Under the pieces are notes generated by a model. It saw nothing but the letters and a program-made list of their open reading frames with translations, was not told the origin of the DNA and did no database searches. Shown piece by piece: positions 3,459 through 16,400 of a stretch of DNA of 64,000 nucleotides. Made by a program: the position numbers and the translations under genes. The stretch is from an uncultured Lentisphaerales bacterium (GTDB lineage: Bacteria > Verrucomicrobiota > Lentisphaeria > JABSQK01 > UBA12247): positions 64,001 through 128,000 of the forward strand of contig CALSSJ010000023.1 in the NCBI GenBank assembly GCA_943788985.1, given 5' to 3'. Every line of letters begins with the position of its first letter. Position 1 is the stretch's first letter.

Positions 3459-4625
3459 TCGTTCAGGCGGGGACCATTTCGGTGCTGCACCGGCTCGCGC
3501 GGTTTCGGCTGCGGATTCTCGTCCATCACGCGCAATGACTCGCGTGCGACACTCAGCAGTAAGCCGATTGCGATGCTGCTGACTAAGGTAGTGGAACCAC
3601 CGTAACTAAGTAGAGGCGCGGCGATACCAGTGGTCGGCAATGCGCCTACAACCACGCCGATATGCACGAACCGAGGGCAGCCAAAGCATAAGCCCCAGTC
3701 CCGAAGCTGCTAGTTGCCCTGTTGCGTCCGGCGTAGCCGCAGAAATTCCAAAGGCCGATGCACCGAGCAGTAGATACAGTAGAATCACGGAAACAACGGC
3801 AACAAAGCCGAGCTCTTCTCCGATAATCGAAACGATAAAATCCGTATGCTTCTCCGGAAGATAGGCTTCCTTCATTCGACTGTTGTTGATGCCAACGCCA
3901 GTCCAGTGGCCGGAACCCCAGTGCGATCAGCGACAGCTTTAGCTGATAGCCTGGCTCCTTCCACCAGTTCAAACGATCCTTCACATTTGTGCTTAGGAAT
4001 GACATTACGATCACGATACAGGACGACCCCAATCAGGCCTCCCAGAACGTAACGGCAACTGAAGCCCGGCCAAAAACATTCATCATGATCAGCAGCATGG
4101 AGCAAATCCCGGTGACGCTCAAGCTGCGCTGAAGGACGATCGATCCGATCAGAACCCCGACGCCCAGCACAGGCTTCCACCACGTTCTGAAACGAGCTGC
4201 GAAGTGCGGCTTAGCACCGTAGTATCCGGCCAAAAACAACACCACTGCGAGTTTGGCCAAACTCGGATGGCTGGACGCTTTGGCCACCAATCGACAGCCA
4301 GCGATGCGCCCCGTTGATCGAAGGCGCACAGGGCAGGCTGAGAGTGGGAAACGTATGGGCAATCCCCAAATAAGCCACGGGAACAATCCCCGCGAACAGC
4401 AGCCACCAGCGCCAGCGGCAGAACCAACGATAGCCCACCAAGTATGCCATGAAGCCAAAAACTCCACCGACGGCAAGCCATTGCACCTGCTTCTTCAGGT
4501 ACGCCTCACCATCCGTCGCGGACGACGTGGAGTATAGCATCACGACACCAAGCCCGACCAAGCCGACTACGGAGATCCCGAAGAGCCAGCGCCAGAACAG
4601 CCAGGGCATTCTTGGTGCGCAGCAT
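3449..4625 (-). CDS. ftsW: SEDS family peptidoglycan polymerase FtsW/RodA (multiple indels)
   Basis: Fragments in successive frames: [61 protein letters not shown]. ftsW versus rodA is not certain. Confidence 0.85.
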
Positions 4626-4628
4626 CGG

Positions 4629-5710
4629 TCAGTTCTTGGCAGCTGCCAGCTTGTCCTCAGACTTAGCTTCAGGCTCGGCTTCCACCTCTGGCTTGAGCTT
4701 CTCATTGATTCGCTGTGACCAACTTCTTCTCCAATTCTGGATCTTCCTTGATCGCCACCTTCGATTGCTCGCGGGCCCCTGCCCAACTGAGAGTCCCGTC
4801 GAAGGAGAACCAAGCACCTTTCTTGTCGATAATCTTGAGGTCTGTAGCAACGTCGAGAATCGAACCGGCCTTTGAGATTCCTTCCCCGTACATGATGTCG
4901 AATGAAGCCTGCTGGAACGGAGGTGCCAGCTTGTTCTTGACCACCTTCACCACCACACCGGTTGCCGATCGGAGTCTGGCTTGAGTCCTTGATGATCTCA
5001 GCACGACGGATCTCCATGCGAACGGACGCGTAGAACTTCAAGGCATTTCCGCCGGTCGTGGTCGTCGGATTCCCGTACATCACGCCAATCTTCTCACGGG
5101 TCTGGTTGGTGAATATCACACAGGTATTTCCGCGGCTGATCGCACCGGTAAGCTTACGGAGAGCCTGGGACATGAGCCGAGCCTGAAGCCCGACATGCGA
5201 GTCTCCCATCTGCCCTTCAATCTCTGCCCGCGGCACGAGAGCTGCCACGGAGTCGATCACCAGCACGTCGATTGCATTGCTGCGGACCAAGGTCTCGGCA
5301 ATATTGAGTGCATCCTCTCCGCAGTCCGGCTGCGAGACCAGCAGATCCTGGGTGTTGACGCCGAGGAGGCGAGCGTAGGATGGGTCGAGCGCGTGCTCCG
5401 TATCGACAAACGCTGCGATGCCCCCATTACGCTGGGCGTTCGCCACCACGCTGAGACAGACCGTGGTTTTTCCGGAAGATTCCGCACCATAGATCTCGAC
5501 GATTCGCCCGCGGGGTACGCCTGGTATCCCCAGCGCCACGTCCAAAGACATGGCGCCCGTGCTGATTGTACCGATGTCCGCAGTTTTTCTTGTCGCCAAG
5601 ACGCATGATCGAGCCAGCCCCGTGCGTGCGGTCAATCTGGGCAAGGGCCGCGTCGAGATTTCCCTCTGGGGCCCGTGTGTTTTGGGATCTTTCTTTTTAG
5701 CCAAAGCCAT
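4629..5710 (-). CDS. recA: Recombinase RecA (several indels)
   Basis: [58 protein letters not shown]. The C-terminus [18 protein letters not shown] lies in ORF 4702..5004 and the tail in 4629..4850. The N-terminal [22 protein letters not shown] lies in a shifted frame. Confidence 0.96.
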
Positions 5711-5713
5711 ATT

Positions 5714-6931
5714 TTAGTCTCCTGTCGTGAGCTGAATTCGAAGTTGATTTAAAGCGAGTGACACGGTACGCTTTTTGGACCGTCTCGCGGTCGCCGCCCA
5801 AGCGGCGTTCCAGAACTCGCACGTCATTGTGTACCTGCGTGCAATAAAAACAAGCCCAACTGGCTTTTTATCCGAACCTCCACCGGGGCCGGCGATCCCA
5901 GTGACCGCGATTCCGGCCTCAAGATCCAGCCGCCCGCAGAGACCGCGCACCATTGCCTCCGCGGTCTCCGCACTGACTGCGCCGTGGGTATCAAGCGTCG
6001 CTTCCGGAACGCCGAGCAATTGGTGTTTGAATGCGTTGCTGTAGGTGATCATGCCGCCTGAAAAGACGTCTGAGACGCCCGGACGGGCCGTGATCGCGCT
6101 GCCGATTCCACCTCCCGTACAGGACTCCGCCACACCGAGGCGCGCCCCGCGTACCCGCAATTTAGCGACCACGCATTCCGCAAGATCGCCCTCGATTGCG
6201 AACTCCGCAAACTCGGCCATGATCGCGGCGAACGCCAGAGAAAGCTGCGAGGAGCATGCCGTAGCCGTAACGCGCACCGCCGTGGCACCATACGAAACAC
6301 AGTACGCAGGTGAAACCTGAGGAAAGTCCGCCAAGACGGCGAGCACGCGCTGCTCCACCTCTGGCTCTCCGACATCGAAGACCTTTAACTCCCTCGTTGC
6401 GGAGTTCGCAGCAAACAGCGCCTGCAGGCGAGGCACAATACGCTCCCGCATCACTGCGCCGAACTCTCGGGGTGGGCCGGGGAGCATGCCGACGGCCCGG
6501 GTTCCATTTGTGCACCACAATCCTGGCGCGACGCCTGCGGAGTTCGCCAGGATTTCCGCGCCAGCCGCTGTATGTGATTGGGCGTCGAGCTGTCCGGGGG
6601 AGATCTCCTTGCCCCGGGATTCAAGCGCCTGTCGCGAGTGCGCTTCCGCCTCTGGGGAAAACGCATAGGGTAAGGCAAGCGCATCGGCGATGGCTGCCCG
6701 CGATAGATCATCCCGCGTTGGGCCAAGGCCGCCAATGGTCAAAACCAAGGCCCCGCGCTCGAGCGCACTGCGCACTGCACCAGCCACGGTTTCGCGACTG
6801 TCAGGAACGCAGGTTTCACGATCAATACCCAAACCAATCTCAGCCAGCATCTTGCCAGCTGTGACCAGGTTGGTATTCAGCGTCCGACCTGCCAGCAATT
6901 CATCCCCGATCGAAACGACTTCAATACTCAC
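5714..6931 (-). CDS. cinA: CinA family protein (MoeA-like domain + NMN deamidase PncC domain)
   Basis: IGDELLAGRTLNTN, GGLGPTRDD, LPGPPRE, AESCTGG, GITGIAGPGGG-like C-terminus; canonical position upstream of recA. Compensated frameshift near 5775-5845. Confidence 0.92.
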   Translation of the reverse strand: MSIEVVSIGDELLAGRTLNTNLVTAGKMLAEIGLGIDRETCVPDSRETVAGAVRSALERGALVLTIGGLGPTRDDLSRAAIADALALPYAFSPEAEAHSRQALESRGKEISPGQLDAQSHTAAGAEILANSAGVAPGLWCTNGTRAVGMLPGPPREFGAVMRERIVPRLQALFAANSATRELKVFDVGEPEVEQRVLAVLADFPQVSPAYCVSYGATAVRVTATACSSQLSLAFAAIMAEFAEFAIEGDLAECVVAKLRVRGARLGVAESCTGGGIGSAITARPGVSDVFSGGMITYSNAFKHQLLGVPEATLDTHGAVSAETAEAMVRGLCGRLDLEAGIAVTGIAGPGGGSDKKPVGLVFIARRYTMTCEFWNAAWAATARRSKKRTVSLALNQLRIQLTTGD

Positions 6932-6942
6932 TAGATCGCCCG

Positions 6943-7506
6943 TCAGACTTCCAGCAGCTCTTTCTCTTTGGCCGCCGCACGATCATCGGCCTGCTTCGTG
7001 TAGTTGTTCGTCAGCTCTTGTACTTCTTCCTGTAGCTCCTTGAGGTCATCCTGGGTGATATCCGAAGCCTTCTCTGCCTTTTTGGCGAAATCGTTCGATT
7101 CTCGCCGAATGCCGCGAATCTGCACGCGAGCCTCCTCAGCACGCTTGCTGACCTGCTTGGCCAAATCACGCCGCCGTTCTTCACTCAGCTCTGGTACGGG
7201 CAAGCGCACGACGCGCCCATCACTGACTGGGCTGATCCCAATGTTAGCCGCGATGATCGCCTTCTCGATGCTGCCGATTGAGGTCGGATCGAAAGGCTGG
7301 ACGACGAGCATCCGCGGCTCGGGTGTGCTGATGTTCGCCAGTTCACGCAAGCGTGTCTGGGCGCCGTAGTATTCGACCATGATGCCTTCTACCAGCGCGG
7401 GAGATGCCTTCCCGGTACGAAATCCGGCTAGGGCCTGCTCAAACGCATCCAGCGCGCCCATCATACGCTCTTCGGTCGATTCTGCGAGGTCGTCAATTTC
7501 TGGCAT
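6943..7506 (-). CDS. frr: Ribosome recycling factor
   Basis: FRTGKASPAL, PELSEERRRDL, RGIRR, KEKELLEV; 187 aa. Confidence 0.96.
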   Translation of the reverse strand: MPEIDDLAESTEERMMGALDAFEQALAGFRTGKASPALVEGIMVEYYGAQTRLRELANISTPEPRMLVVQPFDPTSIGSIEKAIIAANIGISPVSDGRVVRLPVPELSEERRRDLAKQVSKRAEEARVQIRGIRRESNDFAKKAEKASDITQDDLKELQEEVQELTNNYTKQADDRAAAKEKELLEV

Positions 7507-7529
7507 GCTATGCCTCCATTATCGGTGAT

Positions 7530-8729
7530 TCAGGGACTGAGTGCTGGCAATGAGTCATTGCCTTCAAAGTTCTTTAGTGCTCGGACAGTGCGGAATTTCG
7601 TGTCCAGCATGAAAAGTGCAGTCCGGCCGCCCACGGTCCGGGCACAGACGATGTGCCGCCCGTCCGCTGCCCAAGTGGGCTCCTCCCAGTCACCGCCGAC
7701 ATCATCGTGCGCGTATTCGACGACGCGCTGCTTACGGGGAAGGTTCATGTCTACGAAGCCAATGCGATAACTCCGCCCTCGGCGCTGCGCGAAGCAAATG
7801 CGGTTGGTAAGTGGGCACCAGTCCGGTGAGACAGCCTCGTTGGTGTCCACCATGATCTTCTCTGCGGGGCCACCATTCGCTGACATCACATACAATGTGG
7901 GACGCATCCCGGAGCGATCCGAGACGAAGCAAATCAGGCGGTCGTCAGGAGACCAGCACGGCGATGTGTCCACAATTTTTGAATTTTGGGTAAGCCTCTT
8001 CTTGCCGTCCTGCACTACCCCGCGGGCATAGATATCTACTTCCCCATTCAGACTCAAGCAAAGCGCAGCGTACTTTCCGCTGTTGGAAAGCGATGCGTTA
8101 GAGTTCAGCCCGCGCTCACTCGAGAGCGTCCGCTGCTGCATGGTACTCGTATCCACGAGGCGAACCTGATTGGCGATTAGTGAGTAGCTTGTGTAGGTAA
8201 GGAACTGGCCCTGCGGCCCCCATTCCGGCTCGACGCTTAAATGCTGATTGTAGGTCAGCTGCCTCGGGCCTGCGCCATCGAAGTCCGCCAGCCAGATTTC
8301 CTTCACGCCTGCTCGTTCCTTTACGTAGGCCAGCTTAGCATGGCAAGGGCCCGCCTTCGCATCAGGAAAGGTACGAGTGATCAACTCGTCAACCGCGGCG
8401 TGGACCACATGCTTAAGCGCCACCTCCGTGGCGGCATTCTTGCGAAACGCAAACAATTGCTTGCCGCCGCCAGACAGACGAAACACCAGATCATGCTGCC
8501 CAGTTGCGCTGTACTCGACGGCCAGCGCGTAAGTCGATCCGCCAGCCCCCGGCGTGAACCAGTCCGCGTAAAGAATCGCGTCGGACACCGCCCTGTCCAC
8601 ATCGGCATTTCCGGACGATTTAATGCTAATGGTTGGGTTACCTGTGGCATCCGCAGCCGCTTTGTCTACGCGAATTTCATTCGCGTAGACACAATAAGAC
8701 AGTGACAATACAAAAAGAGCGCGAATCAT
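7530..8729 (-). CDS. tolB: TolB family beta-propeller periplasmic protein
   Basis: Likely start MIRALFVLSLSYCVYA (signal peptide). IWLADFDG, PD40-like repeats SPCWSPD, SPDW, EPTWAADGR. Confidence 0.82.
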   Translation of the reverse strand: MIRALFVLSLSYCVYANEIRVDKAAADATGNPTISIKSSGNADVDRAVSDAILYADWFTPGAGGSTYALAVEYSATGQHDLVFRLSGGGKQLFAFRKNAATEVALKHVVHAAVDELITRTFPDAKAGPCHAKLAYVKERAGVKEIWLADFDGAGPRQLTYNQHLSVEPEWGPQGQFLTYTSYSLIANQVRLVDTSTMQQRTLSSERGLNSNASLSNSGKYAALCLSLNGEVDIYARGVVQDGKKRLTQNSKIVDTSPCWSPDDRLICFVSDRSGMRPTLYVMSANGGPAEKIMVDTNEAVSPDWCPLTNRICFAQRRGRSYRIGFVDMNLPRKQRVVEYAHDDVGGDWEEPTWAADGRHIVCARTVGGRTALFMLDTKFRTVRALKNFEGNDSLPALSP

Positions 8730-8852
8730 GAGCGGTGGGAATTCCAAAGCAGGAGGTGGTTGCGGCGGCACGACGACTCCCGAATGGTAATACGCGCAGG
8801 CGGTTTGTAAACCTATTTGTGCGCACACACTCCTCTGATGACTCGTCAGAAA

Positions 8853-9932
8853 TCAGGTTCCGAAATAGCGGTCCCCATAATCCCCCAAGCCCGGCACGAT
8901 GTAGGCATTCTCATCCAGTCGCTCATCGATTGCCGCTGTGATGATTCGGACTTCCGGCGCGATACCGCGAAGTCGCGCGATACCTTCTGGGGCCGCAACG
9001 ACACAAACAACGGTTACCGTCTTGGCACCAGCCTCGCGCAGCGCGGTCAACGAGTCGCACATCGAGCCTCCCGTAGCGAGCATCGGATCCAAAAGCATCA
9101 CATGGCAATCTGCCAAATTGGCAGGCAGCTTCTGGTAGTAAGCACGCGCCACGGCTGACTCCTCGTCACGCTCCAAACCGATAAAGCCAACAGCCGCGTT
9201 GGGCACCAGCTCACGCGCTGTCTCAAGCAACGCCAGGCCTGCCCGCAACACGGGAACCAAGCAAACCGGGTGCGCCAGAGTTCGCCCGACGGCCGCCGAC
9301 AGCGGCGTCTGAATCTTTCGTGGTCGTGTCGCCACCTCTCGCAACGCCTCGGCAGTAAGCAGTGATGCCAGCCGTACGGAATTCTCGCGAAAGTCTGCTG
9401 GGCCGGTCGCGCGGTCACGCAGAATAGTCAGAGCGGCTTGGGCCACCGGATGATCGACTAACTTTACTCCCGCTATTGCGACCCCAGAGTTGGCCGTGCC
9501 GATGTCTTCCTGCCAGAGTTCCGGGTTACCGGCTATGAACGCCGACATCATTGCCACACAGCCGTCATCATCTAGGTTGGTGACCTCTACCCCTCCATCA
9601 CGCAGCCAGTCGAAATCTCCCCCGAAAGTTCGCGCCTCTCCAATTACAACACGCCCAATTCGAAACTGCCTAATCAAACCACTGCAGTAAAGACAAGGGG
9701 CCAATGTGCTAACCATGGTCGTGTCACCGTAGTAGCCAATACGACCGGCACTGCGAAACGCATCGGTCTCTCCATGAATCGAAGGGTCGTTCTGCTGCAC
9801 GCGGCGATTTCGTCCGCGGCCCAACAGCCTGCCGTGTCTGTCGAACAATGCTGCTCCAATGGGGATCCCCCCCTCAGCCAAGCCCTCTTCAGCCTGCTCA
9901 ATTGCCACATCCAGCATCTCCAGATCAGTCAT
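8853..9932 (-). CDS. upp: Bifunctional cytosine deaminase (FCY1/CDA fold) - uracil phosphoribosyltransferase fusion
   Basis: Start MTDLEML with GGGGAG RBS. Deaminase half: EGGIPIG, HGETD, PCLYC, WQEDIG. UPRT half: DHP, PVLRAG, LLDPMLATGGS, YIVPGLGDYGDRYFGT. Single open frame. Confidence 0.9.
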   Translation of the reverse strand: MTDLEMLDVAIEQAEEGLAEGGIPIGAALFDRHGRLLGRGRNRRVQQNDPSIHGETDAFRSAGRIGYYGDTTMVSTLAPCLYCSGLIRQFRIGRVVIGEARTFGGDFDWLRDGGVEVTNLDDDGCVAMMSAFIAGNPELWQEDIGTANSGVAIAGVKLVDHPVAQAALTILRDRATGPADFRENSVRLASLLTAEALREVATRPRKIQTPLSAAVGRTLAHPVCLVPVLRAGLALLETARELVPNAAVGFIGLERDEESAVARAYYQKLPANLADCHVMLLDPMLATGGSMCDSLTALREAGAKTVTVVCVVAAPEGIARLRGIAPEVRIITAAIDERLDENAYIVPGLGDYGDRYFGT

Positions 9933-10047
9933 CTCTCCCCTACCTTGCCAATTCTGAGCCTTTACGACCCCCATAACACGAAGCAGCCCCGCACTTAACG
10001 ACCCGCTCACACTTGATGGAACCGCCAATCATTGCAACCTTTTGGGC

Positions 10048-10818
10048 TCAGATCTGCCCGCGAAGTTTCGCCCAGACCAGGCCGAGGTACTCGTGCATTG
10101 CGGTGTTCGCACGCTGGAAGCCGCGGGGGCTTGGAAAGAAATAGCCCGGACTAAGACTGAATCTCTGCCCGGTAAGAAAGTTTGCCGGCGAGGCAATAGG
10201 TGCGAGGCCCTGCTTCCGGAACAAGCACATCGCTCGAACCATGTGCGAAGCACTCGTCACCAACACGAACGGCTCCGTGCCAAGGTGTTCCGTGAGATTA
10301 ACGGCTTCCTCGTAGGTAATCTTCGAGCGCCCGTCCACAATGATCCGGCTCTCCTCGACACCAAGATCCAGCGCTGCTTCCGCCAGAATCTCCGCATTCG
10401 GGGTAATTCCGAATACTGCGCCTCCGGATACAATCAGCTTTGCATCCGGTAGTCGCCGTAATTGTCGAATCCCCTCAACCAGTCGTGCCAAGGTCACAGG
10501 GTTCAACTTTGAGGTCGCGGCGAGACGCGAATCCATCTTGTGTGCGCCACCCAGCACCACGACGAACCTGCAATCCCCCTCCACCGGCTGAGTCAACGGC
10601 GGATGTTGCCACTCCAATACTTGCAACATCCAGCCAGCTACAGGGCCTATACTCAGCAGCACGGTCAGCACACAAGCAACCGTGACAAGCCAACGGCCAA
10701 GCCGCCTGGTCCGCTTCCTCCATAGCAGGATCGTACCGACGACCAAAAGAAGGACCACTGCCGACAGCGGATACAGCAAATGTCCCGCAATCTTCTTGAT
10801 GACAAATGCCCAGCCCAT
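10048..10818 (-). CDS. elyC: YdcF/ElyC (DUF218) family envelope protein
   Basis: Two N-terminal TM helices, VVVLGG, ARLVEGI, SGG, TYEEA, LVTSASHMVRA, HEYLG. Confidence 0.82.
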   Translation of the reverse strand: MGWAFVIKKIAGHLLYPLSAVVLLLVVGTILLWRKRTRRLGRWLVTVACVLTVLLSIGPVAGWMLQVLEWQHPPLTQPVEGDCRFVVVLGGAHKMDSRLAATSKLNPVTLARLVEGIRQLRRLPDAKLIVSGGAVFGITPNAEILAEAALDLGVEESRIIVDGRSKITYEEAVNLTEHLGTEPFVLVTSASHMVRAMCLFRKQGLAPIASPANFLTGQRFSLSPGYFFPSPRGFQRANTAMHEYLGLVWAKLRGQI

Positions 10819-10824
10819 TAGGCC

Positions 10825-11997
10825 TCAGCTCCCGGTTCCAGACAAGCCTTCAATTGAGGCCAGCGCATTGGCTGTCCAAGTATGATGCGCAAGACAATCA
10901 CTGCGGGCCTGTACACCAGTCCTGGCACGTAGACCCGGGTCTGCGAGATAGCGCAGCAACGCCTTCTCCAGGCCGTTTTCATCCTCTTGGTCAAAGAGCA
11001 CTGCATTCTCCCCATCTCGCAGCACCATCTCGATCGGCTCAGTTGCGGGCGCTACCACCGCTCGCTCGAGGGCCATATACTCGAATAGCTTCAGCGGCGA
11101 CCGATAGGCGTTGCTCTGGGGAATAGTCGCAATGTCCATAGCGCAGACATACTCGGCAATCTCCGCCCGAGTCACCGCCCCCGCAAATACTAAATGGTCT
11201 CGCACACCGACCTCCGCCGCTTGCGCCTCTAGCTCTTCCTGAAGAGTCCCATCTCCAACCATCAGCAGCTTCGCGTCGTAGCCCTGGTCCCGCACCCGAG
11301 CCAAACCAGAAACGAGGCCCGGAAGGTTATGCCAGTGTACCAGCCATCCCACAAAACCAATCACCACTGACGACCCTAGGCTGAATTTCTCACGTACCCG
11401 TTGGCCACCTCCAACCTCGGAAAACGCCACTTCATCAATCGCATTGGGAAGCACAATCACCTTTCCTTCCTCGATACCAAGTTCCACGATGCGGCGCTTC
11501 AGGTGTGGAGAGACAACCACAACTCGATCAGCACGGCCAAGCAAGAACCGATCAGACCACAACGCAACAGGCTTCAACAATGGCTGCTTCCGAATTCGTT
11601 CGTCACAGACCAACTCATTCACCTCCACCACCAAAGGAATCTTGAAGCGGCGTGCCAGCAATGCCGTAGAAAACAAGAAGAACGCATGCCGCTCGTAGAT
11701 CAGATCGTACTTCTCAGCCTCAAGCAGACCACGATTGCGCCACCAAGCTGCGAGATTGTAGCCAACCTCCATGAATTCAAAGAGAAATCCCGGTGCGCGG
11801 GCCGCGAGCCGACTCAACAGGCCTCCGCCTTCCTTTCCACTAAATGGTGTGCTGCCTTGACTCTCGCGTGGGTCCACCCCCGTTGGGCTCGATAACTCAA
11901 TCTCGTAGCCAAGCTTCACGAGCGCATTCGCGATCCCCGCAATATGCACACCCTCACCACCCGTCCCACGGGTCCGAAAATGGTACAAGACCTTCAC
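10825..11997 (-). CDS. Glycosyltransferase family 4
   Basis: GT-B fold features: GGEGVH, DLIYERH, VLPNAID, GFVGW, SPLKLFEYMA, HTW. Confidence 0.88.
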   Translation of the reverse strand: MKVLYHFRTRGTGGEGVHIAGIANALVKLGYEIELSSPTGVDPRESQGSTPFSGKEGGGLLSRLAARAPGFLFEFMEVGYNLAAWWRNRGLLEAEKYDLIYERHAFFLFSTALLARRFKIPLVVEVNELVCDERIRKQPLLKPVALWSDRFLLGRADRVVVVSPHLKRRIVELGIEEGKVIVLPNAIDEVAFSEVGGGQRVREKFSLGSSVVIGFVGWLVHWHNLPGLVSGLARVRDQGYDAKLLMVGDGTLQEELEAQAAEVGVRDHLVFAGAVTRAEIAEYVCAMDIATIPQSNAYRSPLKLFEYMALERAVVAPATEPIEMVLRDGENAVLFDQEDENGLEKALLRYLADPGLRARTGVQARSDCLAHHTWTANALASIEGLSGTGS

Positions 11998-12021
11998 GAA
12001 GTCAGCGTGCTCAGCATACCG

Positions 12022-12453
12022 TCACGCCTCCGCTGGCCCATCCTCGAGCCCTCCCACTAATTCCACGTGCTCTCGCGCCTCTGTCCATGCCGCAAGGCGA
12101 GCGTCGCAGGTCAGAATTGTGGCACCACAGACCCGTGCCGTCGCCACAATCCAAATGTCGTTGTCACCCAACTCTGGATACAATGCAGCAAGATGTCCGA
12201 ACTCATGAAGTACATCAGCACTCAAATCCACGACAACAAAACTCTTCGAAGCCTTCAGAAGCCAGTTATCGTCCCGATGACGCCACCCCGCTGCAGTTGC
12301 GTATGCCAATGCCTCTCCAAGAGAAACCGTACTTACCAATGGGCGAGAAGGACTGGTAGCGAGTCCGTAGCGCACATCCAACTCGCGCGCCGCATCCCGC
12401 TGTCGCAGCAGCAGTAAAAACACGTCAGTGTCCATGAGCAGGGGACCGTTCAT
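12022..12453 (-). CDS. PIN-domain (VapC-like) ribonuclease
   Basis: 143 aa with acidic PIN motifs LMDTDVF, SLGE, GDNDIWIVATA, ILTCD. Confidence 0.8.
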   Translation of the reverse strand: MNGPLLMDTDVFLLLLRQRDAARELDVRYGLATSPSRPLVSTVSLGEALAYATAAGWRHRDDNWLLKASKSFVVVDLSADVLHEFGHLAALYPELGDNDIWIVATARVCGATILTCDARLAAWTEAREHVELVGGLEDGPAEA

Positions 12454-13385
12454 ACTCCCCCCAACCTTCGGATGCCGGCAAGAATCTCCTCGTCCCCTTC
12501 CACGCCGGGCCAGCCTGCCAGATCGACCGACGGCTCCAAACGGAGAGCCTGAGTATGCATAGTCTTCCTTCCAGCGTGCGCCTGCGGCACCACGCTGAAG
12601 AACTGCTCGCTCTCCTCAGCCTTCCTCATCAACTTCGCTTCGACACGAAGCAATGCACCAGAGGGCCGGAAGATTGCCGTTCCCTCAATTACAATACGCC
12701 CTCCCCAAAGCTTCCCCAGCTGAGTACGATCGGCTGGCAACCAAAGACCGTGTAGCCGCTCCCCGCCATGCAAGGTCATGATGAAACTTGCATCGCTGGA
12801 TCGGATGGTATCCAAAGATCCCATTACACGACTCGCAACCGGAGGAGGGGTTTCCTTCGACAACTCAGCTGCCTGCTTCAGCACGTCAGCGTTCACCGTT
12901 AACGCCTCACGTCCCTGCAATCGCCCACCTGAGATAGTGACAGCCTCAACACCGTAGCGCGAAAAGCGGCGCAATGACGCAACGCGGCGCAGAAGCTGTG
13001 CGTCGAACCGTCTGCTATCTACCAAACGCGCGGCTACATCACGCATTACCGAAGCCAGCACTTCGAAGCCGGTCTCCTCGGGATCGGGCGGTGTCCAGAA
13101 CAGGGTGGGTTGCCGATAGTAAGATGCTGCAGTTTCGCCAAATGCCTCGGTTGCAAACGACAGCTCAGCATTGCCTGCCTGCACGTCCGCTCCAACAAAA
13201 CGAATAGCAGCTGCAGCCTGCAACCAATCAGGACTACCTTTGAGGCTGCTCCGAAGTTGAAATGCCATCGCGACTGAGCCAGCGATGCTGGACTCGGCCC
13301 AGCGAATCACCTCAGCAATTCCGCCCGGCGAAACAACTTCCCCTTCGGCGGCCTGAATTGAAAAGACGTAATGGGATGTAGCCAT
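12450..13385 (-). CDS. Uncharacterised protein translationally coupled to the PIN gene
   Basis: 311-aa ORF with ATGA overlap into the PIN start; globular-looking sequence, acidic tail WPGVEGDEEIL. Confidence 0.7.
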   Translation of the reverse strand: MATSHYVFSIQAAEGEVVSPGGIAEVIRWAESSIAGSVAMAFQLRSSLKGSPDWLQAAAAIRFVGADVQAGNAELSFATEAFGETAASYYRQPTLFWTPPDPEETGFEVLASVMRDVAARLVDSRRFDAQLLRRVASLRRFSRYGVEAVTISGGRLQGREALTVNADVLKQAAELSKETPPPVASRVMGSLDTIRSSDASFIMTLHGGERLHGLWLPADRTQLGKLWGGRIVIEGTAIFRPSGALLRVEAKLMRKAEESEQFFSVVPQAHAGRKTMHTQALRLEPSVDLAGWPGVEGDEEILAGIRRLGGV

Positions 13386-13390
13386 AACAG

Positions 13391-13418
13391 AAAAAGCCCG
13401 CCACGCAATGTGGCGGGC
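13391..13418 (-). terminator. Rho-independent terminator after the giant surface protein gene
   Basis: Stem GCCCGCCAC / GTGGCGGGC (13396-13418) with a 5-nt loop, followed by TTTTT on the minus strand; a TTTT run on plus suggests it may be bidirectional. Confidence 0.8.
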
Positions 13419-13443
13419 CCTTTTCAGGTTCCTGAGCTCAGGA

Positions 13444-16400
13444 TTACCAAGTCAGTGAGGAAGGCTCGTCCACGAAGATCCAGTAGCCAATTCCTGGTTC
13501 CAAGGTCGCTACTGTCACGTAGTCGTCGCCGACCTGCTTCCTCGCGATCGCACCAGCCGGTACGCTTACCGGAGCACCGACGCCAACCACATTCCAGCCC
13601 GTGGTCAGCGCCACGGATCCGGATGCGGCGGCTGTACCAACGACCAACAAGCTCGTCTCCGCGCCCGGGTTAAAAACCCAGTAGCCAGCGCCCACCTCAA
13701 TGCTCGAAGCAGCAACCTGCTCGCCATTGAGATAGGTGCGTACACTGTCCGCAAGATCACCGAATACGGCAGCCGGACTGACGTCACTTGGCGCGACCGG
13801 TGTGCTCACCAAGTTCCAACCACTTGCGAGCTCGATCGTCGCCTGGGCAGCAACGGCCTCGCTTCCGCCAGCGGAGCGAGCAGTACCAGTCAGCACCGGA
13901 CTTGGCTGATCTGCGGGAAAACTCAACCCGGTACCAACGGCGCGAATCGGTCGAGGCCCATCTGCATTCGGCGTGATGGTGCTGTAGCCGACGCGCATTC
14001 CGGTGGAACGGACGTTAACCACCGAAATCGTGAACAAAGAGTCGTTCGTCCACGTTCCAGTCATGTCAGCGTCCAACCCATCACTGAAGTCGAACAGATC
14101 GTGAATGATCGGTGCATTCCAAGTACCAACGAGCCCTGGTGGCGTGTTCGTCACTTTGTCGAAGTCGATCGTCAGGGTATCCCCATCGGTAATCGTCCCG
14201 GATCCGTCGCCAGTACTGCCAAACGCCGTGATAACAGGCTTGGGCGCGGCGGCTGGGATGTTGGCAACCGCATCCTGCAGGGTACCTACCAGGATACTAC
14301 CACGAACACGCAGGGGATAGCCAATGCCTGTCGGTGGTGTGTAGCTGTGGAGTGGAGCCCCACCGTTCTTAGACACGCTGTATGTCCCACCAGTCAGCGA
14401 GACCGTGATATCATCGCCTTCCGCATAGGTGCCAATGTGGCGTGTGTAGCGCCCTGGTGGTGTGTGGTAGGTGTGTAGAGAGCCGCTCCCCTCAAGGGTG
14501 ACACCAAACTCGAGCGTGTTCACATCATGGTATGGCCCGATAACCAAGTCCGTCTGCGAGGTGAAGCCAATGGCCCTAATCTCGTCGGTCCCGGTAGCAG
14601 TGATCGTGATGTCGGCGTCTCCAGCGACCAACAGCGTACTACTGTGGGCACCAGCCTTCCAGAGACCGTCACCAAGTGCGAAGCCAGTACGGGCAATAGT
14701 ATTCTCCGTCGCAGTCACATCCTTCTGAGCAATCCAAACAACCTTATTGACCACACCGAAGTCGCCAACCATCAGCGGTGATGGTGCGTCAGCAGCACCA
14801 AGGGCCGGGCCAACCGCATCCAAGATCGGTGTCGTTCCAGTCGGCTTCACACGGAGCTGCCCAACTTGAATCCCTGCAGCATTCGTCACATCCGATACGA
14901 TGATCTGGAAGGTTTTGTGGTCGAGCCAGCGACCGTTGTAGGCCGTGCCCAAACTGACGATGCCGCCGTTGAAGGGGTTTTCAAAGGTGAACAAGGCGTC
15001 AACTCCAGCCTGGCCAACGTCGCTGCCATCATGGCCGCCACGGTCGGTATCCTGAGCAAACTTAATCAGCAGGAAGTCGCCACTGTTCCAAGCCGCAACG
15101 TCATCGTCGAAATCACCCGCTTCCAAGGACTGGAGGATCGGACGGTTGGTCCAGCTGACCCGTGGGTCATAAAGCGTGGATCCCGGCGTTCCGATGTTGG
15201 CGCAAGCGCTGACTGGATAGTCAGCATCCACAAGAACACGGCTTGAGGTGTAGACCCGAACGCTATTCACTGTCACATAACGCTGGGTGCCTGCATACTC
15301 GACCCGAACGACGTCATCCTCCGCCAAGGTTGCCACGTGCGGCCGGACCGTCTGACCGTTGTCAATCACAGCCAGACTGCCGGTCGCAGCCAGCACATGT
15401 GCCGCTAGATCATAGGCCTGCAGACTTACGTCGCCTGTTGCTTCGACATCAGCAGTTCTGATGGTCTTTACGAAGCCGAATGCCAAGGCAGCGTTCGGAT
15501 CGTCGATCGTGAACTGTACGAACCCGTCCCCGGCCCGTAAGCGAGGAGCTAGAGCAACCTAGGCCACCCCAGATTGATGCGCCCGCATTGCCAACCAGAT
15601 TGTTATCGCCGTCGATAGTCGCGTCTAGTACTCCAAACCACGGTATCGGATAGCCGTTATCATCCGAGGCAAACAGCCCCTGCAGAGTCGCGAATCCGTT
15701 CGCCGCTGGGCTGAAGTTTGTGGGGATCTCTTGAGTGATAGGCAGTGTGCCCGCAGCAGTCACTGTCGTCACACCAGACTCAAGTGTCGACCCAAGCTCA
15801 TCAGAAACCGAGATCACGTAGGTCAAGTTGTCTGCCCAGCCCCCCGTGTAGGCAGCGCCCAAGGCTGCGTCGAAGGTCCAAATCTGATTGATCACCGTGG
15901 CATTATGAGGGGCAGCACCACCGGGCTGGCTGCCAGCAACACTCAAAGTAAGAGTCAACAGGAAGTCAAAACCACCACCTACGTCGGTCTGCACGAAGCT
16001 TACCAATTCTGGTGGCGCAGAGATGATTGCGTTGTTGATCGCCTGACTGTTGGTTTCGTTCATGTATGCATTTGCGTAGAACGGAAGATCACGATCCACA
16101 TTCACCGCTGGGCGCTGACTAGTGTAGCGCACGACGCCGTTCACCAAGTACTGAATCGATTGCGTGCGAGTTAGCGCTACCCGAATGGTGTCCCCTTCGG
16201 CCCACGACCCAAACGTCCCAACCTTGCCGAGATTTTCCCAGACCTGGAACAGTCCAGACCCTGCAAGCTGTGCGCCGAACAAAATATTCGTAGGCTCAGC
16301 ACTTGTGTCATCTGCACTGAAGCCAAAGATCGTGTTTCCACCAAGTGTGCCAGCAGTAAACTCAATGTAGGAATCCGAACGAGTGCCTCGAGCGATGCAT

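Follow-up and report, generated by a model that had tools for sequence, protein, structure and literature searches.

A natural fusion of an Fcy1-type cytosine deaminase domain and a uracil phosphoribosyltransferase, predicted to act in pyrimidine-base salvage, in an uncultured Lentisphaerales bacterium

Identification of the fusion gene

The window analyzed here is a stretch of 64,000 nucleotides from the genome of an uncultured Lentisphaerales bacterium (GenBank assembly GCA_943788985.1, contig CALSSJ010000023.1, positions 64,001 to 128,000 of the forward strand; all coordinates below are those of the window). On its minus strand, at 8853..9932, lies a single open reading frame (ORF) of 359 codons plus stop, with the ATG at 9932 and the stop codon at 8853-8855, which combines an N-terminal cytosine deaminase (CD) domain of the Fcy1 type with a complete C-terminal uracil phosphoribosyltransferase (UPRT). 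An earlier note on this DNA, made from the letters of the sequence, had described one 359-aa frame at exactly these coordinates without naming the strand; the ORF list and the translation agree with it, and all the motifs it had listed are found in the translation, where they read EGGIPIG, HGE, PCLYC, WQEDIG, TANSGVAIAG and VKLVDHP. It had also maintained that the upp part has no start of its own, and a codon-by-codon reading bears this out: codons 130-162 contain no in-frame ATG, GTG or TTG, and the first in-frame start-type codon after the linker is a GTG at codon 163, past the DHP motif.

Alternative upstream starts (GTG or TTG) would extend the product to 373 or 391 aa. We take the ATG at 9932 as the start because two fused relatives (P0003 and P0005, see below) begin with the same Met-Thr as the 359-aa reading, and because a purine-rich stretch lies upstream: GGTAGGGGAGAG (9933..9950, minus strand), a possible ribosome-binding site, is placed directly 5' of the ATG, as is the purine-rich GGGGAGAG. 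A scan for sigma-70 promoters and terminators revealed nothing exceeding chance, and the Rfam scan of the window gave no matches.

The cytosine deaminase domain

The Fcy1-type (CDA-fold) CD domain comprises residues 1-145 (9498..9932, minus strand), as delineated with Pfam, the alignment to yeast cytosine deaminase (yCD) and Foldseek. The Pfam family dCMP_cyt_deam_1 (PF00383) matches residues 3-98 (2e-17), the motifs H53-G-E55 and P79-C80-x-x-C83 are present, with the zinc ligands H53, C80 and C83 and the catalytic residue E55, and the domain terminates in the WQEDIG lid. In a sequence search of the PDB the best solved relative is yCD (2e-28), followed by TadA and a putative cytosine/adenosine deaminase (~1e-13) and by guanine deaminase (~1e-5); among the 47 PDB sequences matched at E <= 0.001 there is no CodA-type amidohydrolase chain. 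The N-terminal domain of the AlphaFold2 model described below superimposes on yCD with Foldseek TMt scores of 0.87-0.91 and an rmsd of 1.4-1.5 A over ~148 columns. On these grounds the assignment to the Fcy1 type rather than the CodA type, proposed in the earlier note, stands.

A study of yCD (PMC11000218) gives Asn51, Gly63, Glu64, Asp155 and the zinc ion as the ligand contacts, Phe114 and Trp152 as the gate residues, and residues 153-158 as the C-terminal lid. Our alignment pairs the fusion protein with yCD at N42/Asn51, H53/His62, G54/Gly63, E55/Glu64, C80/Cys91, C83/Cys94, F103/Phe114, W140/Trp152, D143/Asp155 and I144/Ile156. Six of these residues (N42, H53, E55, C80, C83 and F103) are identical in 28 of the 28 aligned relatives, and the zinc ligands and the catalytic Glu are retained in every fused relative.

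Bacteria abound in stand-alone deaminases of the Fcy1 type: E <= 1e-30 was reached by 7981 of the 8000 candidates scored. Those closest to the fused domains (P0131, P0133 and P0148; ~62-69% identity by BLASTP or alignment) possess a tail of 16-19 residues beyond the DIG motif, which is conceivable both as a remnant and as a forerunner of the linker. Other fusions of Fcy1-type deaminases involve part of an NCS1 cytosine/purine permease, allantoicase, Abi_2, CMD, a fragment of pseudouridine synthase, and a second deaminase in tandem (P0208, P0174, P0157, P0127, P0195 and P0122).

The UPRT domain

Residues 156-359 (8856..9467, minus strand) form a complete UPRT of the Upp type, as judged from Pfam, NCBIfam, PDB and Foldseek comparisons. 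The Pfam family UPRTase (PF14681) matches residues 159-359 over profile positions 2-206 of 206 (2e-68), and both NCBIfam upp equivalogs are passed, NF001097 with 237.7 bits (cut-off 114) and TIGR01091 with 230.8 bits (cut-off 208.35), in keeping with the completeness claimed in the earlier note. The best solved relative is Upp from Mycobacterium tuberculosis (PDB 5e38, 1e-57), the identity to stand-alone bacterial enzymes is 42-56%, and the C-terminal domain of the model matches UPRT structures with Foldseek TMt up to 0.93. Both D282-PMLATGGS, which we take to be the loop that binds phosphoribosyl pyrophosphate (PRPP), and the C-terminal PGLGDYGDRYFGT, presumably the uracil-binding motif, are present and invariant across all fused relatives. 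The C-terminal motif reads GD-Y-GDR; at its variable position, Y is found in 29 of the 251 motif-bearing proteins compared, as against F in 128 and A in 89, so that we regard Y as a normal minority variant.

The linker and the predicted structure

The two domains are connected by TANSGVAIAG (residues 146-155; 9468..9497, minus strand), which has no in-frame start codon. Its length is 10-11 residues in every fused relative and its sequence is variable, with identity of 3-6 out of 10 positions compared to 64-81% in the domains. An AlphaFold2 model, built from an alignment of 36 rows, has a mean predicted local distance difference test score (pLDDT) of 90.7 and a predicted TM score (pTM) of 0.60, with no confident inter-domain geometry; pLDDT falls below 50 only at residues 143-151, a segment that reaches from the end of the lid into the linker. 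No solved chain among the Foldseek matches covers both domains (TMq at most 0.55).

The ends of single-domain relatives illustrate how the join is built. The W-x-E-D-I-G tail is found in 24 of 26 aligned stand-alone deaminases, the remaining two rows diverging before the motif; 18 of the 24 end no more than two residues after it and six have tails of 4 to ~30 residues. Within the same order, genome G001 encodes a stand-alone CD with 60% identity that ends in ...NEDIGEAT. Stand-alone UPRTs in turn start 2-9 residues ahead of the (V/I)-x-H-P motif. The ends of the stand-alone proteins thus coincide with the domain boundaries, and the fusion consists of two complete genes placed end to end with only a spacer added. 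In five other two-family relatives that we scanned, the deaminase comes last in the chain and has a free lid; attachment of a further domain behind the lid is therefore unusual in this deaminase family.

Authenticity of the junction

The identical 359-aa protein is encoded on 16 public contigs (NCBI, JGI, Logan, ENA and GEM), the longest of 271 kb, and the 373-aa reading was found on 13 further contigs. Two fragments cut at contig ends (P0393 and P0383) continue uninterrupted across the linker. For the stretch 8700-10100, 20 sequencing runs from nine studies are listed, with marine or estuary metagenome labels and 14 of them flagged as possible sources; such labels fit a marine or estuarine habitat. 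Positions 9440-9520 are spanned, with no differences and no gaps, by contigs of four runs that belong to three studies: two contigs from DNA runs cover all 1401 bases of the stretch, and of the two RNA-library contigs one extends over 8999-9714 and the other over 9090-10100. The contention of the earlier note that the fusion is not an indel artefact is upheld by the independent assemblies and by relatives at 79% and 68% identity, which keep the frame. The junction is real.

Fused relatives and phylogenetic distribution

Our searches of clustered proteins for fused and CD relatives covered proteins of 197-629 aa. Among the 120 best matches listed from 5.8 billion clustered proteins, four clusters are fused, namely the window's own (P0002), P0003 and P0004 (79% identity to the window protein) and P0005 (68%); a further fused protein, P0391 (79%), belongs to the cluster of P0003. 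Identity to the window protein in the CD half, the linker and the UPRT half amounts to 80%, 30% and 81% for P0003, 79%, 60% and 81% for P0391, and 64%, 30% and 73% for P0005. The conservation of the domains and the variability of the linker indicate that both halves are under selection and that the spacer is free to change, a pattern that would be expected if the two domains work as one enzyme.

When 1.84 billion cluster representatives were searched exhaustively with phmmer, one full-length match was listed, P0003 (615 bits), which represents the cluster containing the window protein; the architecture corresponds to one cluster at 50% identity. The following ranks are taken by the frameshifted P0006 (discussed below) and then by single-domain proteins with at most 227 bits. 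Any two-domain protein should outscore these single-domain matches. The rarity holds within the scope of the representatives searched, as a fused protein under a single-domain representative would stay hidden. Among 15 long UPRT-containing or two-stretch representatives that we scanned there were no deaminase-UPRT joins, and one of them (P0378) is a double deaminase.

At the level of genomes, the fusion turned up once in the 351 of the class and once in the 401 sampled across the phylum, both times in the window's own genome. Within the class, CD and UPRT have a patchy distribution as stand-alone genes and some genomes have both, at separate places; within the order, CD occurs in one of the 14 other genomes and a UPRT match in none of the 14. 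Scans of genomes, metagenomes and viral contigs revealed the window's own locus (L094) as the sole fused one, which is weak evidence because the search patterns were specific to close relatives. Apparent long matches in metagenome contigs were L159 and L161 (query 92-359) and L108 (109-355); on inspection L161 and L108 were dismissed as plain UPRTs with chance extensions.

We also looked for a possible precursor with neighboring genes. A tblastn search with the CD half against 173 loci found no relatives with adjacent CD and upp genes. The deaminase gene next to upp in many Actinomycetes was considered as a precursor of the fusion and rejected, as these genes are TadA and not cytosine deaminases: of three partial sequences tested, two exceed the cut-off of the TadA equivalog (150) and the third remains below it with 132.9. 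The tadA gene adjoins upp in divergent orientation in Micrococcaceae, Cellulomonadaceae and others (L034, L038-L040, L044-L049, L059, L071-L076 and more).

In a FastTree phylogeny of 98 rows without an outgroup, the UPRT halves group with three genomes of the same phylum on a long branch; long branches meet, hence this placement is indicative only. Horizontal transfer was considered as well and found no signal in base composition, the GC content being flat (0.55-0.64) across 4000-14800. With a weak score (0.79), the ESM Atlas yielded a 106-member cluster of bacterial proteins of 321 aa that combine a deaminase with a generic phosphoribosyltransferase (PRTase): PF00383 is present in all members and PF00156 in 92%, and Bacteroidota is the commonest phylum among the two members with known phylum. 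This cluster may represent another kind of deaminase-PRTase fusion and is mentioned as a lead only.

The earlier note knew of no described natural example of the fusion, and our search leads to the same view: the full-text literature returned engineered fusions (FCU1, CD::UPRT) or unrelated papers and no natural CD-UPRT fusion, with subscription journals and database annotations lying outside its reach. The natural CD-UPRT architecture thus appears to be undescribed and extremely rare, its occurrence being limited to a small clade of a few related marine lineages.

Genome context

The fusion gene lies in a run of genes on the same strand, in the order glycosyltransferase, DUF218, fusion, TolB-like PD40 protein, frr and cinA. 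A link to pyrH and frr was considered and discarded, as pyrH sits on a different contig. In the genome to which the window belongs (83.6% complete), the sole UPRT match is the fusion itself and the sole other deaminase is TadA; pyrF and pyrH are present, which indicates that de novo pyrimidine synthesis is present. The only candidate found in this genome for freeing bases from nucleotides is a 270-aa LOG/TIGR00730-like protein (G000:C42:18841-19230; L090 1465..2277, minus strand), which scores 81.8 bits, under the subfamily cut-off of 96.35.

Elsewhere in the window, a PIN-domain gene (12022..12453, minus strand) overlaps by four bases the end of an upstream 311-aa ORF (12450..13385, minus strand) for which no Pfam match was found. 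The two may constitute a toxin-antitoxin-like pair in which the partner of the PIN-domain protein would be unusually large.

Comparison with known enzymes and fusions

The CD half shares with yCD (PDB 1p6o, 1uaq, 1ox7 and others) the CDA fold, the H-x-E/P-C-x-x-C site, the contact and gate residues and the W-x-E-D-I-G lid, with ~40% identity over ~148 columns. The difference concerns the C-terminus: the yCD chain ends one residue past the lid motif, whereas in the fusion the lid is tethered to the linker and the UPRT. In yCD this lid is the gate of the rate-limiting product release. Stand-alone bacterial deaminases of this type, such as those from Mycolicibacterium (P0431 and P0479, annotated as "nucleoside deaminase" or "cytosine deaminase"), are ~150 aa long, exhibit 65-72% identity to the CD half and have the same motifs; proteins of this type are single-domain and have no NCBIfam equivalog. 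The UPRT half is matched over its full length by bacterial Upp (PDB 5e38, 1v9s, 1o5o and 1i5e), in which the N-terminus is free and the motif reads GD-A-GDR in the solved enzymes, in contrast to the joined N-terminus and GD-Y-GDR of the fusion.

The closest counterpart in architecture is man-made. In the suicide enzyme FCU1, too, an N-terminal Fcy1-type CD and a C-terminal UPRT are combined in one chain, and the expected chemistry would be the same, i.e. conversion of cytosine or 5-fluorocytosine (5-FC) to uracil or 5-fluorouracil (5-FU) and then to uridine monophosphate (UMP) or its 5-fluoro derivative (5-FUMP). The UPRT of FCU1 is yeast Fur1 without its N-terminus, whereas the UPRT of the window protein is of the full-length bacterial Upp type and is attached by an evolved linker of its own of 10-11 residues. 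The window fusion is natural, bacterial and known from marine metagenomes, and it is not a member of the FCY1/FUR1 construct family. FCU1 is described in two articles (PMC13015416 and PMC11555051) as an engineered protein in which yeast FCY1 and FUR1 are fused and which turns 5-FC into 5-FU and 5-FUMP; its primary paper is cited as Erbs et al. 2000, Cancer Res 60:3813.

Other natural fusions of UPRT detected in our searches include a UraA-type permease (P0297, 630 aa), RpiB (P0340 and P0354) and a low-molecular-weight phosphatase (P0382); in all of them UPRT is C-terminal and the partner supplies or handles its substrates, and none includes a deaminase. We also observed an amino-acid-kinase fragment and pentapeptide repeats joined to UPRT (P0335 and P0380), and N-terminal parts of ~170-195 aa of no assigned family joined to UPRT (P0325 and P0348). 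Fusions of enzymes that catalyze consecutive steps of a pathway are common in general, and UPRT also occurs in plant uridine kinase-UPRT proteins and in an engineered fusion of E. coli CodA::Upp.

Predicted function and alternative explanations

Based on the two domains identified, we predict that the gene most likely encodes a bifunctional enzyme of pyrimidine-base salvage, which would convert cytosine to uracil and uracil to UMP, the reactions of EC 3.5.4.1 and EC 2.4.2.9. In the N-terminal domain, a zinc-bound water activated by Glu55 would deaminate cytosine to uracil and ammonia, and the C-terminal domain, as an ordinary bacterial UPRT of the Upp type, would combine uracil with PRPP to give UMP. 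The fusion would fix the two activities at a ratio of 1:1 and keep the consecutive steps together. The protein may form homo-oligomers via the dimer interfaces known from the deaminase and UPRT families, and a kinetic benefit could come from the hand-off of uracil or from altered opening of the linker-bearing C-terminal lid. The context of the deaminase family points to a nucleobase substrate, as in the 65%-identical relative P0208 a part related to NCS1 cytosine/purine permeases is encoded in the same frame.

Several observations weigh against this prediction. Literature searches found no enzymatic test of the fusion protein or of bacterial proteins closely related to it. The Fcy1-type deaminase lacks an equivalog in NCBIfam, and the CD half matched only the TadA model (49.8 bits, under the cut-off of 150). 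In the fused relative P0005, the position of Asp155 is occupied by Asn and that of Gly63 by Ala. The neighboring genes (DUF218, the TolB-like protein, frr and cinA) have no tie to pyrimidine metabolism. Neither nucleobase permeases of the NCS1 and NCS2 families nor a nucleoside hydrolase of the IU type were found in the 83.6%-complete genome, which leaves the source of cytosine unexplained; it could be taken up by an unrecognised transporter, or the LOG-like protein could release bases from nucleotides. The RNA-library contigs that span most of the gene are compatible with transcription and do not prove it. Finally, on a 167-kb public contig (P0006 and P0388) the gene is frameshifted at least twice, outside the linker.

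This last case is what speaks for regarding the single frame as an artefact of assembly or gene calling, or as a decaying pseudogene, derived from two adjacent genes, an explanation that we find scarcely credible. The intact, identical ORF recurs on 16 contigs and its longer reading on 13 more, from several sources; the runs that cross the junction do so without a difference; the architecture is kept in relatives that have diverged to 79% and 68% identity; and a separate upp would have no in-frame start. P0006 itself remains in frame through the linker, and its first frameshift falls on a G7 homopolymer of the coding strand (window 9867..9873, codons 20-22), a typical site of sequencing errors, so that it is most likely such an error. 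The G7 run would also be prone to slippage.

The identity of the substrate deserves more attention. The deaminase half might act mainly on something other than cytosine, e.g. 5-methylcytosine, isocytosine, creatinine, N4-modified cytosine or a nucleoside, in which case the pairing to UPRT would have a different purpose or would serve just a fraction of the flux. The automatic JGI names of close stand-alone relatives ("cytosine/creatinine deaminase" or "creatinine deaminase") and the NCBI name (merely "nucleoside deaminase") would allow for this, as would the lack of a curated equivalog for this type of deaminase, and the fusions of relatives to allantoicase, CMD, Abi_2 and other domains imply that the roles of the family may be broader. 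These names are automatic labels, though; all substrate-contact and gate residues of yCD are retained in the window protein, and uracil is the only product of a deaminase that UPRT can use, so the covalent attachment of a full UPRT favors cytosine. We therefore consider a different main substrate unlikely. Another view holds that one half is catalytically silent and acts as a sensor, e.g. that binding of uracil, UMP, PRPP or GTP by the UPRT half regulates the deaminase, or the reverse. UPRTs are allosterically regulated, structures bound to GTP and UTP are among the Foldseek matches, and the model, with its pTM of 0.60, leaves the inter-domain geometry without a confident prediction. Against such a silent half stand the full-length UPRT match above two equivalog cut-offs with its PRPP loop and C-terminal motif, the zinc ligands and catalytic Glu kept in all fused relatives, and the fact that the fusion is the only UPRT match of the genome, which together make a sensor role very unlikely.

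Within the prediction of a bifunctional salvage enzyme, a functional effect of the tether is plausible, since the join is made on the C-terminal lid. The idea may be carried further: the tether would couple the opening of the lid to the UPRT site, and uracil would be handed over without equilibrating with the cytoplasm, turning the protein into a closed cytosine-to-UMP module, in an organism for which the searches gave no permease of uracil or cytosine. We regard this extension as doubtful. If true, such coupling would account for the better performance of the man-made FCU1 relative to its separate parts, and it would provide a compact, naturally optimized 5-FC-activating enzyme.

Conclusion

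Both halves of the protein are textbook enzymes, and the finding neither introduces new biochemistry nor overturns expectations. Its interest lies in a natural architecture that mirrors a fusion that was engineered on purpose for use in prodrug gene therapy and in counter-selection. At 359 aa, the protein is a compact candidate for 5-fluorocytosine counter-selection or prodrug activation, and its evolved linker and domain layout can be used to ask whether a tethered lid changes the release of product or leads to channelling of uracil. The ecological weight of the fusion is probably small, as only a few related marine lineages carry it. For the deaminase family as a whole, the fusion provides evidence of the Rosetta-stone kind that cytosine is the substrate of a large group of bacterial proteins, the Fcy1-type "nucleoside deaminases" with a length of ~150 aa.

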